A model generated the notes under the pieces. It made no database searches, was not told the origin of the DNA, and saw only the letters and a program-made list of their open reading frames with translations. A stretch of 9,448 nucleotides of DNA, from IMG/VR virus record IMGVR_UViG_2547132281_000004, one strand, 5' to 3'. The translations under genes and the position numbers were made by a program. The DNA comes from a virus (taxonomy: Duplodnaviria; Heunggongvirae; Uroviricota; Caudoviricetes). Positions 2,791 to 9,448 of this stretch are shown here, piece after piece (positions within the stretch are counted from its first letter, which is position 1; the number at the start of each line of letters is the position of its first letter).

Positions 2791-2947
2791 CCATGGCGGC
2801 GGCAGCATGTTTGGTAATTTATTGATAATTAAAAGTTATTTCTCTTTTCACCTGTACAATATTTTTTTCTCCCTGTCATTAGACCAGTTTGCAATTAATT
2901 GAAATATATAAATAAACCTGATTTTCACCTGCCAGATGGAGTTGCTT

Positions 2948-3475
2948 ATGTCAAATGTGAGCGGGATCGGTGATGCTTATTACTGGAGTGTTTTTAAAAT
3001 CGCCGAGGCCTTTGGGCTTCACCGGGACACAGTAAAAAAACGGCTCCTCGCGGCCAACACTCCTGTGGCTGCGACTGTCAGGGGGAACCCCGTTTACGCC
3101 CTGCAGCATGTCGGGCCCGCCCTGTTTAGTGTGAAGCATGAGGCAGCAGACTCTGTTCATGATCCATCCCGTATGGAGCCGAAAGAGAGAAAGGACTGGT
3201 ACCAGTCTGAAAATGAAAGGATCAAGCTGGAAAAGGAGCAGCGAAAACTCATCCCAGTTGATGAAGTAGTCATCGTCTATTCGTCCATGAGAAAGGCTGT
3301 CGTCCAGGTTCTGGAGACAATTCCGGATGTTCTTGAACGCGATTGCGCCCTGACTCCTCAGGCCGTCGGCGTTGTACAGCAGGCCATTGATGACCTGCGA
3401 TACACTCTTCAGGAAAAATCCTACGAGGCTTGTGCTGCTGAATTAATTCCTGATGAGGAAGGAGAGAGTCTCTAG
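2948..3475 (+). CDS. Phage terminase small subunit (Nu1-like DNA-binding packaging protein)
   Basis: Immediately upstream of and coupled to the large terminase subunit. N-terminal helix-turn-helix-like segment (SVFKIAEAFGLHRDTVKKRL) and a charged block (ENERIKLEKEQRKL) resemble lambda Nu1 (AERDAEIENEKLRRE). GGAG at 2938-2941 favours ATG 2948 (MSNVSG...); ATG 2936 is an in-frame alternative. Confidence 0.8.
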   Translation: MSNVSGIGDAYYWSVFKIAEAFGLHRDTVKKRLLAANTPVAATVRGNPVYALQHVGPALFSVKHEAADSVHDPSRMEPKERKDWYQSENERIKLEKEQRKLIPVDEVVIVYSSMRKAVVQVLETIPDVLERDCALTPQAVGVVQQAIDDLRYTLQEKSYEACAAELIPDEEGESL

Positions 3476-3483
3476 GAGGAATA

Positions 3484-5583
3484 ATGGGTTTTTCATCAGC
3501 CCGAAATTTGGGAAGGGACATATCGGCAGGATTTTCCCCACCACGTCGCATGCCGATTTCGGAGGCTGTTAAAAAATTCATGCGTGTTCCCAAGGGGGCT
3601 GGTAACTCGGTGCCATGGGATCCTGAACTGACACCCTACATCATTGAGCCCATGAACTGCCTGGCATCGCGTGAATACGATGCGGTGATTTTTGTTGGTC
3701 CTGCGCGAACAGGGAAGACCATTGGTCTGATCGATGGATGGATTGTCTATACCATCGTTTGCGATCCTTCGGACATGCTCGTTGTGCAGATGACCGAAGA
3801 TAAGGCCCGCGAGCATTCTAAAAAGCGCCTTGACAGAACGTTCAGAAGCAGTGCGGCGGTAAAGAAAAGAATGAGTCCACGTCGTAACGACAATAATGTC
3901 CATGATAAGACGTTCAGGGATGGCTCGTTCCTTAAAATTGGTTGGCCCTCGGTCAATATTATGTCGTCGTCGGATTACCGGTTTGTCGCCTTAACCGATT
4001 ACGACCGTTTTCCGGAGAATATCGACAGCGAGGGTGATGGTTTCTCCCTGGCCTCAAAACGTACCACCACATTTATGTCCGCCGGGATGACTCTGGTGGA
4101 GAGCTCGCCGGGACGTGACATCTGCGACAGCAAATGGCGACGTAAGTCGCCTCATGAAGCGCCACCGACGACTGGTATTCTTTCCCTTTACAATCGTGGT
4201 GACCGCCGCCGCTGGTACTGGCCATGTCCGCACTGCGGTGAATATTTTCAGCCAGCTATGGATGCCATGACCGGCTACCGTAATGAACCGGATCCCTTTA
4301 AAGCCAGTGAGGCGGCGTATCTACTTTGCCCGCACTGCAGCGGCATTATCACTGCGGAGAAAAAGCGTGAGCTCAATAGTGCAGGAGTCTGGTTGCGTGA
4401 AGGTCAGGTCATTGATCGTAACGGCAACGTTTCCGGTGAACCGCGCCGCTCCCGTATCGCCAGTTTCTGGATGGAAGGGCCAGCTGCTGCGTATCAGACC
4501 TGGGCGCAACTGGTTTACAAATTACTGACTGCAGAACAGGAGTATGAAGCGACAGGAAGCGAAGAAACACTCAGGGCGGTTATCAACACCGACTGGGGAT
4601 TGCCTTATCTTCCTCGTGCCAGCATGGAGCAACGAAAAAGTGAACTGCTTGAGCAGCGGGCAGAGCCAGTTCCTTCCCGCAGTGTTCCGGATGGCGTTAA
4701 TTTCCTTGTGGCGACAGTGGATGTGCAGGCGGGACGTCATCGCCGTTTTGTGGTTCAGGTAACGGGCTATGGCAGCCGTGGCGAACGCTGGATTATTGAT
4801 CGTTACAACATCACGCAGTCATTGCGCAGTGACTGCGACGGGGAGAGCCAGCGAATTGATCCGGCCAGCTATCCGGAAGACTGGGATGTCCTGCTGACGG
4901 ATGTTTTTCATAAAAGCTGGCCGCTGGCCTCCGATCCTTCTCAACAAATGCGACTGATGGCAATGGCGGTGGACTCCGGCGGTGAAGACGGGGTCACTGA
5001 TAATGCCTATAAATTCTGGCGTCGTTGCCGTCGTGATGGCCTTGGTAAACGTATTTACCTGTTTAAGGGCGACAGCATCCGGCGCGCAAAACTGATCAGC
5101 CGTACATTCCCTGATAACACCGGACGAACGGGCCGCCGGGCGCAGGCCGCAGGTGATGTGCCGCTCTGGCTTCTTCAGACGGATGCCCTGAAAGACCGGG
5201 TGAATAACGCGTTATGGCGTGACTCGCCAGGTCCAGGCTATGTGCATTTCCCTGACTGGCTGGGGAGCTGGTTTTACGACGAACTGACGTATGAAGAGCG
5301 GAGCAGTGACGGGAAATGGAGTAAGCCGGGTCGCGGTGCCAACGAAGCTTTTGACCTGATGGTGTATGCCGAGGCTCTGGTCATTCTGCATGGATACGAA
5401 AAGATCCGCTGGCCGGATGCACCGGAGTGGGCGAGCCGGGAAACCTGGCTGGAGTGTGTCCCGGACAGTACCGAACCGTCACCCTCACCGGAACCGGTAC
5501 CCACGCCTGTTAAAAAACAAAAACGGAAGAAAACAGTAACTGACGATGTTAACCCCTGGCTGACTTCCGGAGGATGGTTATGA
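3484..5583 (+). CDS. Phage terminase large subunit, GpA (lambda A) family
   Basis: 699-aa uninterrupted ORF with strong SD AGGAGGA at 3474-3480. Walker A-like GPARTGKT; paired CPHCG...CPHCS motifs. Blocks align with lambda gpA from memory (VGPARTGKT vs KSARVGYSK; CPHCGEYFQ vs CPHCGEEQY; VDVQAGRHRRFVVQVTGYGSRGERWIIDRYNI vs IDSQLDRYEMRVWGWGPGEESWLIDRQII). Confidence 0.95.
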   Translation: MGFSSARNLGRDISAGFSPPRRMPISEAVKKFMRVPKGAGNSVPWDPELTPYIIEPMNCLASREYDAVIFVGPARTGKTIGLIDGWIVYTIVCDPSDMLVVQMTEDKAREHSKKRLDRTFRSSAAVKKRMSPRRNDNNVHDKTFRDGSFLKIGWPSVNIMSSSDYRFVALTDYDRFPENIDSEGDGFSLASKRTTTFMSAGMTLVESSPGRDICDSKWRRKSPHEAPPTTGILSLYNRGDRRRWYWPCPHCGEYFQPAMDAMTGYRNEPDPFKASEAAYLLCPHCSGIITAEKKRELNSAGVWLREGQVIDRNGNVSGEPRRSRIASFWMEGPAAAYQTWAQLVYKLLTAEQEYEATGSEETLRAVINTDWGLPYLPRASMEQRKSELLEQRAEPVPSRSVPDGVNFLVATVDVQAGRHRRFVVQVTGYGSRGERWIIDRYNITQSLRSDCDGESQRIDPASYPEDWDVLLTDVFHKSWPLASDPSQQMRLMAMAVDSGGEDGVTDNAYKFWRRCRRDGLGKRIYLFKGDSIRRAKLISRTFPDNTGRTGRRAQAAGDVPLWLLQTDALKDRVNNALWRDSPGPGYVHFPDWLGSWFYDELTYEERSSDGKWSKPGRGANEAFDLMVYAEALVILHGYEKIRWPDAPEWASRETWLECVPDSTEPSPSPEPVPTPVKKQKRKKTVTDDVNPWLTSGGWL

Positions 5584-5792
5584 ATCAGAATGATATTGAA
5601 GCCATGATTCAGCGTTATACGGAAGCTGAAATGGCGGTGCTGGACGGAAAATCCGTCACTTTTAATGGTCAGCAGATGACCATGGAAAACTTATCTGAGA
5701 TCCGGCAGGGGCGGCAGGAGTGGGAGCGCCGCCTTGCGGCTCTGATTACACGACGACGGGGGCATCCCGGGTACCGGCTGGCGAGGTTCTGA
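5580..5792 (+). CDS. gpW-like head-tail joining / head completion protein
   Basis: 70-aa product MNQNDIEAMIQRYTEAEMAVLDGKSVTFNGQQMTMENLSEIRQGRQEWERRLAALITRRRGHPGYRLARF resembles lambda gpW (...[55 protein letters not shown]). ATG 5580 overlaps the terminase stop (ATGA) with GGAGG at 5569-5573; position after the large terminase matches lambda gene order. Confidence 0.75.
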   Translation: MNQNDIEAMIQRYTEAEMAVLDGKSVTFNGQQMTMENLSEIRQGRQEWERRLAALITRRRGHPGYRLARF

Positions 5793-5981
5793 TGGCAATT
5801 CTTGATGATGTGATTGGCGTTTTTTCACCAGGATGGAAAGCGGCAAGGCTGCGTTCCCGTGCGGTGATCCAGGCTTATGAGGCCGTAAAAACGACGCGGA
5901 CACACAAAGCCCGACGGGAGAACCGAACTGCCGACCAGTTAAGCCAGTACGGGGCCGTGTCGTTACGTGAGCAGGCCCGTT
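5792..5981 (+). pseudogene. Portal protein gene, N-terminal fragment only (about 63 codons), truncated by internal deletion
   Basis: ATG 5792 overlaps the gpW stop (TGATG). [63 protein letters not shown] looks like the start of a lambda-family portal protein in the gene-B position, but near 5981 the frame runs into tfa-derived DNA and stops at 6031. Confidence 0.55.
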
Positions 5982-6431
5982 ATTGCACCACCAGATATTC
6001 CTGCTGGCTTTGTGGCTGTTTTCAACAGTGATGAGGCATCGTGGCATCTCGTTGAAGACCATCGGGGTAAAACGGTTTATGACGTGGCTTCCGGCGACGC
6101 GTTATTTATTTCTGAACTCGGCTCATTACCGGAAAATGTCACCTGGTTATCCCCGGAAGGGGAGTTTCAGAAGTGGAACGGCACAGCCTGGGTGAAAGAT
6201 GCAGAAGCAGAAAAACTATTCCGGATCCGGGAGGCGGAAGAAACAAAAAACAGCCTGATGCAGGCAGCGAATGAGCATATTGCGCCACTTCAGGATGCTG
6301 TAGATCTGGAAATCGCAACGGAGGAAGAAAACTCGTTGCTGGAAGCCTGGAAAAAGTATCGGGTGTTGCTGAACCGTGTTAATACAACAACTGCACCGGA
6401 TATTGAATGGCCAGTAGCACCTATAGGGTAA
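5982..6431 (+). CDS. Tail fiber assembly protein (Tfa), C-terminal ~150 aa; 5'-truncated fragment fused to the portal remnant
   Basis: From [47 protein letters not shown]...[33 protein letters not shown] the translation closely matches E. coli prophage Tfa proteins as I remember them (...[19 protein letters not shown]...[11 protein letters not shown]...PDIEWP...). The family N-terminal ~45 aa are absent; the ATG at 5967 (MSRPV) lies in portal-derived DNA. Confidence 0.8.
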
Positions 6432-6514
6432 ATTCGTAATGATTACCTAAATACGTTATTCTTTTGTTCAAAAAGTGATTTTGCTATAGGTAGGGAGTAT
6501 GTTCTTGGATTAAG

Positions 6515-6547
6515 AATAAAAAATCGCCATGAAAGAGCTTCATGGCG
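6515..6547 (-). terminator. Candidate intrinsic terminator, minus-strand orientation
   Basis: Perfect 9-bp stem CGCCATGAA/TTCATGGCG with a 5-nt loop at 6525-6547; on the minus strand it is followed by ATTTTTTATT (plus-strand A-run at 6515-6524). No T-run follows it on the plus strand. Confidence 0.4.
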
Positions 6548-7020
6548 AGTACATAAACGTACAAAATGTGATGAAAGTAGAGTGGCGTAAGCCACTATAT
6601 TAAGATATGACAATAGCGAACAAAAGTAAATAACATTTTATGGACGTTTAATTGTTAATTATAAAAACTAGAGTGCCCGATATTGTTTATCTTGCTTTAA
6701 AATAATGTACTCAAACCAAATTTTTGAGCTAAAAGCTCAAATAATATAAATGCAATGATAATGTTTAATAAGACAATTAGCTTGCTTTGTATTTTCATTT
6801 CGGAATACTGTTAAGTAACTTTGATGACCCTAACAATAGATCGGAATTTTCTTAGAGTCAATGGTCACTGTTTTTGTTTGCAAAGCAAATGTTTTGGTGG
6901 TTATAAGTTTTCCTAATATAGTCACCTATGCAACTTGTTCCGTGTGGAGATTAAAGGTTAAAATTTAATGCGAGGATGGAATTATAATATATTTTTTTAT
7001 AATTAATTTAACCTTAACAT

Positions 7021-7118
7021 CGTTGCTGGCGGCATGGAAGAAATATCGGGTCTTGCTGATATCGTGTTGGCACTTCCTTAGTGCGGTTATCGAATGGCCA
7101 GCTGTACCTGTGGGGTAA
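7021..7118 (+). repeat. Second, diverged direct copy of the tfa 3' end (last ~32 codons plus stop), detached from any tfa body
   Basis: Aligns base-for-base with 6334-6431 at roughly three quarters identity by eye. Its translation stays in frame ([32 protein letters not shown]) and keeps the Tfa C-terminal motifs WKKYRVLL and IEWP, so it derives from a once-functional tfa allele. Confidence 0.7.
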
Positions 7119-7250
7119 AAACTTTATATGGATGCTATTTTTATAATAGCTGGTAAAAACTGGCCGAACTGAAATTCACTGTTGATAAAAAAGATGTGTT
7201 TGAGTGTATGTCATTGTTTTCTTAATGGAATCCACTAGAATGCAGCGAAT

Positions 7251-7448
7251 TTAAGAAGGTGGGTTTTTATTGGAATATAAACTACAATAATGCTCAACTC
7301 GTTCGTAGAATTGTTTTTTCTTATTTCTTGGAATGCTAACCATTATATGCATTATGGGGGCGATACTTCCTGATAATTTACATGATGCATACATTGAAGC
7401 AATAAATTCAATATCATTGTCATCAAAGTTAAAGCTTTCTCCGTCCAT
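7251..7448 (-). CDS. Hypothetical small protein (65 aa) inside the second AT-rich cassette
   Basis: Minus-strand ORF MDGESFNFDDNDIEFIASMYASCKLSGSIAPIMHIMVSIPRNKKKQFYERVEHYCSLYSNKNPPS with AAGGA 6 nt upstream of the ATG. Uninterrupted frames of this length are less expected by chance in such AT-rich DNA, but a 63-aa plus-strand ORF (7333-7524) overlaps it and no family is recognised. Confidence 0.25.
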   Translation of the reverse strand: MDGESFNFDDNDIEFIASMYASCKLSGSIAPIMHIMVSIPRNKKKQFYERVEHYCSLYSNKNPPS

Positions 7449-7776
7449 TTCAATTCCTTATGTGTTTGGCACAACTGATGCTGTATCCCATGAGAATTTA
7501 TGCAAGTTGTTATGTTTGATTTGATATTGCAATGATAATTGTAGCTAATTGTTTTCAATTGAGTGAAAGTTTATTTCGAGTGATTAAGTCGAAAAAAAAG
7601 ATTTCTCACGGTTAGTAAGCATATTAGGTCAGTATTCAGATATGAATGGTATTAATGACTAAATTTTCAATCATATATGGATTTTTATGCTGATGAAGAT
7701 GTTTTATTTGGCGATTCGTCAAGCATCTTCACTTAAGTAATCGTATATTTTAAGAGTGCAAAAGAGAAAGGGACAA

Positions 7777-7876
7777 CGTTGCTCGCACTCTGGATTAAAT
7801 ATAGGGTGTTGTTAAACTGCGTTGATACATAATTGTACCGGATATTGAGTGGTCTGAAGTCCCAGTCATTAAGTAA
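7777..7876 (+). repeat. Third, more decayed direct copy of the tfa 3' end
   Basis: CGTTGCTCGCACTCTGGATTAAATATAGGGTGTTGTTAAAC...CCGGATATTGAGTGG...TAA translates to TLLALWIKYRVLLNCVDT* then, in a shifted frame, PDIEWSEVPVIK*. Tfa motifs are recognisable but the frame is broken. Confidence 0.65.
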
Positions 7877-8164
7877 TCGTTTCGTGATATGCCGCAGAAA
7901 CGTTGTATGCAATAACGTTCTGCGGTTGGCTGATGCACTTTCGAGAGTGTATTGAATAATTTCAAGCCGTTATTGTTTTTACGCGTAACACCATGAAAAG
8001 ACTGCTTATCTGTTGGGGTGTTTTTTGGGGCATATATGGGACAGAAATAGGCCACAGATAGATAGTAAGATCGAACTCAGGATGCTTTTGAAAAAATGTA
8101 ACTATCTGAAAAAACCTAGAAAGCGCCAAGGAAACCACAGAATGAGAAAAAACATCTGTGAATT

Positions 8165-9448
8165 ATGGATTTCCAGTTATATTCGCTCGGCGCAGCGTTA
8201 GTGTTTCATGAAATATTTTTTCCTGAATCATCAACGGCAATGGCGTTAATTTTGGCAATGGGAACCTACGGTGCAGGTTATGTGGCGCGTATTGTCGGAG
8301 CATTTATTTTCGGCAAAATGGGCGACAGAATAGGGCGTAAAAAAGTGCTCTTTATTACCATCACCATGATGGGGATCTGTACCACCTTAATTGGTGTGTT
8401 ACCGACCTATGCACAGATTGGTGTTTTTGCCCCCATCTTGCTGGTGACGCTGCGTATTATTCAGGGGTTGGGTGCAGGTGCGGAAATTTCCGGTGCCGGT
8501 ACGATGCTGGCGGAATATGCACCAAAAGGTAAGCGCGGAATTATCTCCTCATTTGTAGCTATGGGAACTAACTGCGGAACCTTGAGCGCAACGGCAATCT
8601 GGGCCTTTATGTTCTTCATTCTCAGTAAAGAGGAACTGCTGGCGTGGGGATGGCGTATACCGTTCCTGGCGAGCGTTGTCGTGATGGTCTTTGCTATCTG
8701 GTTACGTATGAATCTGAAAGAAAGCCCGGTCTTTGAGAAGGTTAATGACAGCAACCAACCCACAGCAAAACCTGCACCTGCTGGTAGCATGTTCCAGAGC
8801 AAATCCTTCTGGCTGGCAACAGGGCTGCGTTTTGGTCAGGCGGGTAACTCCGGGTTAATTCAGACTTTCCTTGCAGGCTATTTAGTGCAGACGTTATTGT
8901 TTAACAAAGCAATTCCAACAGATGCATTGATGATTAGTTCGATTCTCGGCTTTATGACCATTCCGTTCCTTGGTTGGTTATCCGATAAAATTGGTCGCCG
9001 GATCCCGTATATTATTATGAATACCTCCGCGATTGTGCTGGCATGGCCAATGCTTTCTATCATTGTAGATAAAAGCTATGCCCCGAGCACCATTATGGTT
9101 GCACTGATTGTGATTCATAACTGTGCGGTGCTGGGATTATTTGCTCTGGAAAACATTACCATGGCAGAAATGTTCGGCTGTAAAAACCGCTTTACCCGGA
9201 TGGCTATTTCTAAAGAAATTGGTGGTCTTATCGCTTCCGGTTTTGGTCCTATCCTGGCGGGTATTTTCTGCACCATGACGGAATCCTGGTATCCGATCGC
9301 CATTATGATCATGGCATATTCAGTAATTGGTTTAATCTCTGCGCTGAAAATGCCAGAGGTGAAAGACCGTGATTTAAGTGCGCTGGAAGACGCTGCGGAA
9401 GATCAACCGCGTGTTGTAAGAGCTGCGCAACCTTCCAGAAGTCTGTAA
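8165..9448 (+). CDS. ydfJ: MFS transporter, metabolite:H+ symporter (MHS) family, lacking the N-terminal ~30 codons (ydfJ-like 3' portion; may be a pseudogene fragment)
   Basis: 427-aa ORF, multi-helix hydrophobic, with MFS signature GKMGDRIGRKK and a second motif LSDKIGRR. Aligns with ProP from the region FDFSVYGF...FFP onward, so the first helix and the family N-terminal motif are missing. No SD before ATG 8165. Length and N-terminus match my recollection of K-12 YdfJ (427 aa), whose 5' part is separated by the Qin prophage. Confidence 0.8.
   Translation: MDFQLYSLGAALVFHEIFFPESSTAMALILAMGTYGAGYVARIVGAFIFGKMGDRIGRKKVLFITITMMGICTTLIGVLPTYAQIGVFAPILLVTLRIIQGLGAGAEISGAGTMLAEYAPKGKRGIISSFVAMGTNCGTLSATAIWAFMFFILSKEELLAWGWRIPFLASVVVMVFAIWLRMNLKESPVFEKVNDSNQPTAKPAPAGSMFQSKSFWLATGLRFGQAGNSGLIQTFLAGYLVQTLLFNKAIPTDALMISSILGFMTIPFLGWLSDKIGRRIPYIIMNTSAIVLAWPMLSIIVDKSYAPSTIMVALIVIHNCAVLGLFALENITMAEMFGCKNRFTRMAISKEIGGLIASGFGPILAGIFCTMTESWYPIAIMIMAYSVIGLISALKMPEVKDRDLSALEDAAEDQPRVVRAAQPSRSL

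Follow-up and report, generated by a model that had tools for sequence, protein, structure and literature searches.

We analysed a stretch of caudoviricete DNA of 9,448 nucleotides (nt; IMG/VR record IMGVR_UViG_2547132281_000004), referred to here at its full length as the window, which covers the right-hand end of a degraded lambdoid prophage of the Qin type that interrupts the host gene ydfJ. Our subject is the 1.7 kb of AT-rich DNA that lies between the end of the tail fibre assembly gene tfa (at 6431) and the interrupted host gene (ydfJ'). Read from left to right, the order at this locus is tfa, cassette 1, copy 2, cassette 2, copy 3, a lambda-type hairpin, the Qin right arm, and ydfJ', where copies 2 and 3 are further copies of the tfa 3' end and copy 1 is the 3' end of tfa itself. 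The window was compared with related prophage and phage loci, which carry the labels L001 to L021. In intact relatives (L002/L003), the gene order is J, lom, stf, tfa, the same array, and ydfJ'. The array haplotype adjoining ydfJ is present in 573 of 5426 complete Escherichia coli genomes, with presence being scored when a genome holds at least 80% of positions 5900-8250, and array matches sampled across the ranking are 98.3-100% identical. Among those examined, the sole within-array variant is that of L016 (H220, NZ_CM128549.1, 3400-3501), where positions 431-604 of cassette 2 are replaced by ~100 nt of other sequence. A partial match of 7620-7776 in H220 was rejected as an independent junction, since it represents the same array with this small replacement inside cassette 2.

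The three tfa 3' ends

An earlier note on this DNA, made from its letters alone, had described three direct copies of the tfa end at 6334-6431, 7021-7118, and 7777-7876, and our repeat search and MAFFT alignment confirmed them. The repeat search gave a direct three-copy family (6333-6372, 7020-7059, and 7776-7815, with 85% and 73% identity to copy 1), and additional direct matches pair 6397-6432 with 7084-7119 and 6389-6417 with 7831-7859. Over ~100 nt, the pairwise identity is 73% for copies 1 and 2, 71% for copies 1 and 3, and 63% for copies 2 and 3, and the BLAST E-values between the copy types (1e-10 to 5e-10) are far past chance. That AT-rich DNA separates the copies also holds, with a G+C content of 24.5-39% versus 49-55% in tfa, and the proposal that copies 2 and 3 had been gene ends is supported.

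Copy 1 has no start as such, being merely the end of the tfa reading frame. The plus-strand tfa segment at 5977-6431 comprises nt 128-582 of the 582-nt gene, and its last 98 nt are copy 1. This segment is 99.8% identical to the intact tfaQ of strain UPEC-245U and is itself 5'-truncated; with the first 127 nt gone, it is read as a 154-amino acid (aa) fusion open reading frame (ORF) at 5967-6431. The product of this open frame spans profile positions 1-130 out of 131 in the Pfam family Caudo_TAP (PF02413; E-value 5e-44).

Copy 2 (7021-7118, plus strand) is a dead, non-coding tfa 3' stub that corresponds to tfa nt ~484-582 and carries a +1 and a -1 indel. Its start is a genuine junction (7011-7021) and the sole demonstrable 5' junction among the copies; upstream of it, an anchored alignment test revealed no tfa homology. 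The closest in-frame relative of copy 2 (78%) is the tfa end found ahead of a Bcr/CflA cassette in L017 and L018. Copy 2 had been called in frame, and while its frame is indeed open, this is solely through compensating +1 and -1 indels relative to that closest relative. The sister copy 2 in strain GF50 has the +1 alone and is annotated as frameshifted.

Copy 3 (7777-7876, plus strand) is a dead, non-coding tfa 3' stub of the lambda type, with a premature stop and a frameshift. It aligns to the end of lambda tfa, including the 3-nt longer C-terminus of lambda and the downstream hairpin. Here, the tfa homology probably runs ~60 nt further upstream, to ~7717, such that 7717-7776 (plus strand) would be a decayed extension of this stub (tfa nt ~424-483). 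This is suggested by a boundary-anchored alignment to tfa that outscores 1058 of 1058 control positions (z ~3.4), and by the Rfam covariance model IS009 (inside tfa), which aligns collinearly across the supposed boundary of copy 3. Moreover, 7717-7776 is 93% conserved relative to L007, a level close to that of copy 3 (91%) and above that of cassette 2 (65-85%).

A progressive decay toward the distal end of the array, as the earlier note had it, is not what we observed. There is no gradient, with copies 2 and 3 each being ~22% diverged from the closest intact ends found (78% and 77%, respectively). They are different types of tfa end, and copy 3 is lambda-type rather than a further-decayed copy 1.

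The cassettes and the prophage around them

Separate searches of the 5426 genomes located cassette 1 (6432-7020), cassette 2 (7119-7776), and cassette 3 (7877-8164) in 830, 590, and 2719 genomes, respectively, versus 573 for the whole array. Each cassette is also found directly after an intact tfa elsewhere, this being cassette 1 in L005, L006, and phages, cassette 2 in L007, and the start of cassette 3 in lambda. Independent occurrence of the cassettes, which had been put forward as the matter to check, is therefore borne out, and neither finding that the earlier note named as fatal to its reading arose: no stf/tfa bodies stand in place of the cassettes, and the cassettes do occur apart from this array.

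Cassette 1 is an AT-rich moron (6432-7010) that a 10-nt filler (7011-7020) separates from copy 2; its homology with other phages stops at 'aattta' (~7010), and tfa nt 484 comes after the filler. It occupies 940 places in the 830 genomes (up to 4 per genome) and is carried by the isolated and sequenced lambdoid phages ev099, mEp332, and PhiR70_1. In L005, L006, and L008-L010 (three of them sequenced phage genomes), cassette 1 lies directly 3' of an intact tfa stop codon and has no tfa stub behind it, which means that flanking repeats are not obligatory. A 15-nt likeness ('agagtgcaaaa(a)ga') between the sequence downstream of cassette 1 in L005 and L008 and that before copy 3 was taken as chance.

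The cargo gene of cassette 1 is a small ORF of 33 aa on the minus strand (6697-6798), whose hydrophobic product (MKIQSKLIVLLNIIIAFILFELLAQKFGLSTLF) matches the NCBIfam family YncL (NF000537) with an E-value of 1.3e-5 and 25 bits, under the curated cut-off of 35. By this similarity the peptide appears YncL-like, and it cannot be filed as YncL. The ORF is unbroken in all cassette-1 variants, and its ratio of non-synonymous to synonymous substitution (dN/dS) is 0.075-0.09 relative to an 81%-identical allele (11-12 synonymous and 7 non-synonymous changes). Among the RefSeq matches listed it has no annotated feature, and only in PhiR70_1 is it annotated, as a 37-aa hypothetical protein. Upstream of the ORF, a consensus scan predicts a sigma-70-like promoter on the minus strand (6833-6861; TTGACT, 17 nt, TATTGT), of which the -35 hexamer is kept in four cassette-1 variants. 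A predicted intrinsic terminator of the same minus-strand unit (6524-6548) consists of an 11-bp stem followed by TTTTTTATT, with a folding energy of -15.2 kcal/mol (z = -5.1), and is likewise kept in the variants.

Cassette 2, a second AT-rich moron, spans 7119-7716, up to the probable extension of stub 3. At 80% identity, it lies directly 3' of an intact tfa in the L007 prophage next to prfC, and it is found in none of 50,697 phage records. Its cargo gene is a minus-strand ORF of 65 aa (7251-7448), annotated in RefSeq as a hypothetical protein (WP_001421370.1), which shares 74% aa identity with the L007 homologue (dN/dS 0.28). Its homologues among 5.8 billion clusters are E. coli hypothetical proteins only, and it belongs to no Pfam, PHROG, or PADLOC family; a GlgS match (E-value 0.037, 14 bits) was rejected as noise. 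In fact, searches of the cassette ORFs against Pfam, PHROGs, NCBIfam, and PADLOC returned the sub-threshold YncL match of the 33-aa ORF alone. No transcription signals were identified for cassette 2, with the predicted promoter and terminator both belonging to cassette 1. We noticed that the first ~35 nt of cassette 2 (7119-7155) are homologous to the start of the Bcr/CflA cassette (L001 6875-6906), and by this similarity unrelated cargo would begin, past the tfa stop codon, with the same short leader. From the substitution ratios, the 33-aa and 65-aa ORFs are both under purifying selection, and the cargo looks genuine.

Cassette 3 is of a different make. It opens with a lambda-type post-tfa element on the plus strand (7877-7985), which contains a 15-16-bp hairpin (7891-7926; folding energy -21.5 kcal/mol, z = -2.5, without a U-tract). 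The first 51 nt of the cassette are 96% identical to lambda 22558-22608 (L011 2602-2652), the sequence after lambda tfa, while the adjoining tfa stub is merely 77% identical. The hairpin element is also found, after tfa or after cargo, in L006, L007, L013, L015, L020 (phage cdtI), and K-12 Qin, and it is the native sequence following the tfa stop codon, as in lambda. Its recurrence at the distal cargo end in several phages is as if it marks the far edge of the cargo slot. The remainder (7986-8164) is a Qin-type right arm that extends up to attR at the truncated ydfJ and is 85-87% identical to the K-12 Qin DNA immediately upstream of ydfJ'. The slot of K-12 Qin itself holds pinQ, ydfK, and ynfT instead, with pinQ immediately downstream of tfaQ.

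Taken in this setting, the region from tfa to attR is the accessory ('b-region' or moron) slot of a Qin-type lambdoid prophage, a known cargo hotspot. The cassettes lie between tfa and attR and are variably present, with lambda, K-12 Qin, and L005-L021 all holding other contents in the slot, and cassette 1 is carried by isolated phages. Their composition is atypical (24.5-39% G+C versus ~50%), and cassette 1 has a predicted promoter and terminator of its own.

As for the rest of the window, an IS66-family transposase ORF (10-1272) reaches the left edge and is followed by two ORFs of small PHROG families of unknown function (1295-1537 and 2179-2385) and a GnsA/GnsB-family ORF (1617-1883; PF08178), a GnsB homologue. 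Together, these form a Qin-like lysis-proximal accessory region. Besides the transposase, there is no recombination-type gene in the window. Next come a DUF1441 protein in the small-terminase position (2936-3475), a gpA-type large terminase (3484-5583), a head-tail adaptor (5574-5792), and a 61-codon 5' stub of the portal gene on the plus strand (5792-5976), which matches the phrog_21 portal N-terminus (E-value 3e-5) and truncated-portal PHROGs (E-value 6e-43). The portal stub is joined directly to tfa nt 128 (window position 5977), and a single large internal deletion removed all the head and tail genes between the two. At the right edge, ydfJ' (8165-9448, plus strand) is a host gene for a major facilitator superfamily (MFS) transporter cut by prophage integration, and RefSeq describes it as 'MHS family MFS transporter YdfJ, incomplete, missing N-terminus'.

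Stub boundaries, mosaic identity and the origin of the array

The earlier note had all three copies starting within a few bp of one point in tfa (CGTTGCT), from which it read a serial insertion like that at transfer RNA (tRNA) gene hotspots. A common start does not hold up, as the 5' ends of tfa stubs vary from locus to locus. In the methyltransferase-cassette phages (L012/L013), the stub begins at tfa nt ~423 or before. It begins at nt 440 after S74-peptidase fibre modules in L001, L002, and L010 and in mEp460, and at nt 466 after another fibre/chaperone module in L012, L014, L017, L018, L021, and about ten lambda-like phages. For copy 2 the start is at nt ~475-484, and for phage cdtI at nt ~500, while copy 3 probably extends upstream of the site. 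Because these 5' ends differ, the stubs represent independent, non-site-specific joints. Some are also 3'-truncated, as with nt 466-522 in ev207. In the loci with nt 440 stubs (L002 2361-6143, L001, and L010), we observed that the side-tail-fibre genes have a C-terminal S74 peptidase domain, a self-cleaving chaperone; here, replacement of the fibre module made tfa redundant and left its 3' end.

Two linkages are constant, these being cassette 1 with copy 2 and cassette 2 with copy 3. The junction of cassette 1 and copy 2 is nucleotide-identical in L001 and L019, and that of cassette 2 and copy 3 recurs in L007, where copy 3 (at 91%) is followed by the start of cassette 3. The linkage on the other side of a cassette is looser. 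It had been proposed that each cassette carries a replacement tfa end of its own, and this stands insofar as each cassette type has its own last ~17-25 nt of tfa, but a mobile unit of end plus cassette is unsupported. Cassette 2 stands in L007 behind an intact tfa end of the copy-1 type (91% identity) and not of the copy-2 type (75%), and in L001 and L019 it is a Bcr/CflA cassette, not cassette 2, that comes after copy 2. This Bcr/CflA cassette is present in 36 genomes, and in L017 and L018 is preceded by an in-frame tfa end that finishes with VDTSVAPDIEWPAAPIG and a stop codon.

Among these phages, tfa is ~92-96% conserved up to nt ~565, and tfa matches across 5417 genomes typically end at nt 563-565. 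Perfect co-variation with the cassette downstream is seen in the last ~20-25 nt of tfa, so that roughly the final six tfa codons come with each cassette; the ~70 nt ahead of them vary independently. When compared with L001, the window is 70-82% identical over 6432-6900, 96% identical over 6901-7020 (the last 120 nt), and 93% identical in copy 2, which itself has a single mismatch over its first ~62 nt but many over the final ~37. Relative to L007, identity is 65-85% in cassette 2 and 91-93% over 7717-7876. As judged from these alignments, the identity is a mosaic whose recombination breakpoints lie inside tfa and inside cassettes.

We consider it likely that the array represents the scars of rare illegitimate joins between lambdoid phages, to which homologous and partly unequal recombination has added by stacking cassettes. 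In the native slot, as in lambda, the tfa stop codon is followed by the conserved hairpin, and cargo cassettes bearing minus-strand genes sit between the two. Two founding illegitimate joints, each formed once, would have connected the DNA downstream of one phage's tfa to another phage's tfa at an internal position, giving in both cases a hybrid with tfa plus a cassette in the left arm and a tfa 3' stub plus the DNA that follows it in the right arm. Since the left arm of one phage, with its tfa and cassette, is joined to the right arm of the other, linkages of a cassette with the stub downstream of it are to be expected. Moreover, because tfa is so well conserved up to nt ~565, such a stub would be a ready homology arm, and unequal recombination by RecA or phage Red/RecET between it and the intact tfa of a co-resident or superinfecting phage would add that phage's cassette. 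The array would then read as tfa, cassette 1, the stub of a Bcr/CflA-type phage, cassette 2, the stub of a lambda-type phage, the hairpin, the Qin right arm, and ydfJ'. A Bcr/CflA-type phage is named as the donor type of copy 2 because the tfa end in L017 and L018 is its closest relative. The order of these events, the recombination enzymes, and the expression of the cargo are what we infer, and the extra tfa ends are best explained as scars and not as working parts. The cassettes themselves are genuine exchangeable morons, and what we describe is ordinary lambdoid mosaicism and no new mobilisation system.

Several points weigh against the account of joins and unequal recombination. We infer the founding illegitimate events, and no intact full-length parent was found for copy 2 or copy 3 at an identity above 80%. 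Nor were intermediate arrays found at ydfJ (e.g., one without cassette 1 alone), and cassette 3 at high identity (at least 95%) is present in 579 genomes, a count close to that of the 573 array carriers; for both reasons, ongoing expansion or contraction of the array is not demonstrated. The upstream extension of copy 3 rests on a weak similarity: unanchored local alignment to tfa of the DNA upstream of copies 2 and 3 is not significant, and a blastn search (distant mode) of 7620-7776 against all the E. coli genomes gave no tfa match. Were this extension false, the starts of two stubs would lie 1-10 nt apart, a notable coincidence. Lastly, the stubs and the adjoining cassette ends are better conserved than the cassette bodies, which could reflect selection on the stubs.

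Two other explanations have selection at their core. Doubtful, in our estimate, is that the tfa 3' end is a selected, recombinase-independent docking sequence, at which cassettes with a distal stub stack and swap among lambdoid phages via Red/RecET/RecA. If so, the slot after tfa would resemble an integron in its outcome, with promoter-bearing cassettes accumulating in an array that a common repeat punctuates, and this would apply across phages with cdt, sit, Bcr/CflA, ompT, type III secretion system (T3SS) effectors, and small membrane peptides. Rather unlikely is that selection keeps the stubs because the tfa 3' end functions as RNA or DNA, whether as a small RNA, as a regulatory site, or in keeping convergent units apart (an insulator or terminator). 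Here, the candidate small RNA family IS009 has a full-length match at 6193-6391 (212 bits), wholly within the tfa coding sequence; this was the sole match in Rfam scans of the region, which found no known small RNA in the cassettes. The two stubs score 41 and 33 bits, far under the gathering score of 117, and IS009 may simply model conserved tfa DNA. Selected stubs would fit with the recurrence of tfa stubs in many phages and with the conservation of the stubs and ~60-120 nt of adjoining cassette end (91-96%) relative to the cassette bodies (65-85%). However, these high-identity blocks include cassette ends that are not tfa, in keeping with a recent common origin through recombination rather than with constraint on the stub. 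The stubs also differ in how much of tfa they span (57 to more than 160 nt) and are absent behind the cassettes of many phages.

Improbable by a further step is that a mobile unit, made up of a replacement tfa end and a cassette, inserts at the fixed site CGTTGCT as islands do at tRNA genes, whether in trans or via a Campbell-type circle, and pushes the old gene end downstream. Such insertion predicts the very geometry of an intact proximal copy and dead distal ones, and would account for the ~20 nt of tfa peculiar to each cassette type and for the independent occurrence of cassettes; Campbell-type homologous re-integration of a looped-out circle would also yield the same linkages as unequal crossing-over. 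Yet none of the ORFs in 6432-8164 encodes an integrase, as the earlier note had stated, and there are no relevant tRNA or transfer-messenger RNA (tmRNA) genes, Chi sites, or att-like core in the window. Along with stub boundaries that range from nt ~423 to ~500, with copy 3 probably reaching upstream of CGTTGCT, five loci (three being sequenced phages) have cassette 1 without a downstream stub, cassette 2 follows a copy-1-type end in L007, and copy 2 precedes another cassette in L001 and L019. Cassette ends also lack inverted repeats or a shared motif. With no fixed crossover point, tRNA gene, or obligatory pair of repeats, a site-specific or circular-cassette mechanism lacks every defining feature tested, and the serial insertion that the note proposed is not supported.

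The data contradict the remaining two explanations. That a multi-fibre locus decayed, with internal deletions within complete tandem stf-tfa pairs leaving tfa ends behind, is very hard to sustain: lambdoid and P2/Mu-type phages can hold more than one fibre/chaperone set, and alternative fibre modules abut tfa stubs in L002, L012, L014, L017, and L018, but cassettes 1 and 2 are unlike fibre genes across the 5426 genomes, with 'none' or 'hypothetical protein' as the annotation of each match. In other phages they directly follow the stop codon of an intact tfa, and they hold minus-strand genes under purifying selection; a related genome with stf/tfa bodies in their place was looked for and not found. 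A remnant of a Pin-type invertible tail-fibre segment that lost its recombinase gene is barely credible, despite pinQ holding the equivalent position immediately downstream of tfaQ in K-12 Qin, as all copies are direct, no invertase ORF is present, the invertase half-site core AAACCNNGGTTT has chance-level matches in the region and none at the copies, and in Mu G and P1 C the crossover sites are in the fibre gene and not in tfa; the earlier note had rightly set this arrangement aside.

Comparison with known systems

The value of these observations is mostly in annotation and in the reading of prophage mosaics. Short features annotated 3' of tfa as 'tail fiber assembly protein, incomplete' are seams between independently acquired cassettes, and tfa stubs can be used to delimit morons, including those with toxin or transporter cargo (cdtABC, sitABCD, and Bcr/CflA). 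In addition, the native slot is defined (tfa stop codon, cargo, and conserved hairpin element), and two small cargo genes under purifying selection are flagged, among them the 33-aa YncL-like predicted membrane peptide in sequenced phages. The locus also offers an experimentally tractable case in which short conserved gene ends can serve as homology arms that stack accessory genes in temperate phages. In the literature, we found no earlier description of arrays punctuated by tfa stubs, and the precedents are general ones. Exchangeable effector loci (EEL) are placed 'at the very end' of lambda-like prophages, those at ydfJ among them (PMC8112680), and P2-like phages have an analogous moron position after the tail fibre gene G (PMC3573123). 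With morons, b-regions, and EEL, the array has in common the slot after the side-tail-fibre gene or tfa next to attR, and AT-rich, variably present, self-contained genes; it differs in that two tiny ORFs (33 and 65 aa) are found instead of T3SS effectors or toxins, and in the tfa stubs that mark the boundaries. The SopE-cassette, in the account of PMC7380047 (citing Mirold et al. 2001), is thought to move between prophages by homologous recombination, the mode of transfer that we propose for the array. By that account, it is cargo with constant flanks, sporadic in Salmonella lambdoid and P2-like prophages, and in this resembles the cassettes here, though the cargo and host are others.

Islands that restore the 3' end of a tRNA or tmRNA gene share the geometry, in that the insert brings the intact proximal end of the gene and the dead copy is displaced to its distal side, but in our array there is no integrase, tRNA gene, or fixed crossover, and cassettes occur without a distal repeat. 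The Din-family invertase switches (Mu Gin, P1 Cin, e14 Pin, and p15B Min) share the fibre/tfa region, with pinQ at this place in K-12 Qin, yet they combine inverted repeats in the fibre gene with a recombinase, whereas the tfa ends here are direct and no recombinase is present. An integron array is different again, as we found no integrase and, in a repeat search made without a dedicated attC model, no inverted repeats where the cassettes begin and end.

The array also resembles phages in which tfa stubs punctuate known cargo, namely a YbcY-like methyltransferase, hydrolase, and ompT (L012/L013), cdtABC after nleH/cif (L020), and sitABCD (L021). Within the sequenced lambda-like phage ev207 (L021, NC_049949.1, 3073-6057), a tfa stub is directly followed by the sitABCD iron/manganese transporter operon, which occurs also at L001, L006, L015, and L017-L019. 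The operon had been considered as a chromosomal attachment site, which was rejected because its presence within ev207 makes it cargo in the same slot. In the DLP12-type phages (PhiR26_1 and 2G7b; L012/L013), an intact tfa is followed by the minus-strand YbcY-like methyltransferase gene, a direct tfa fragment, the hydrolase gene, and ompT, for which we take the pseudogenes tfaD, ybcY, and tfaX to be the E. coli K-12 DLP12 counterparts. These phages differ from the window in having one stub only, with a start further upstream (nt 423 or before) and another, truncated 3' end. Phage cdtI (AB285204.1, L020), of which no intact tfa was detected in the stretch read and whose cargo is toxin genes, carries between nleH/cif and cdtABC an unannotated tfa stub (4001-4085) that runs from nt ~500 to the stop codon at nt 582, and has after cdtC a hairpin like that of cassette 3 (6670-6755).

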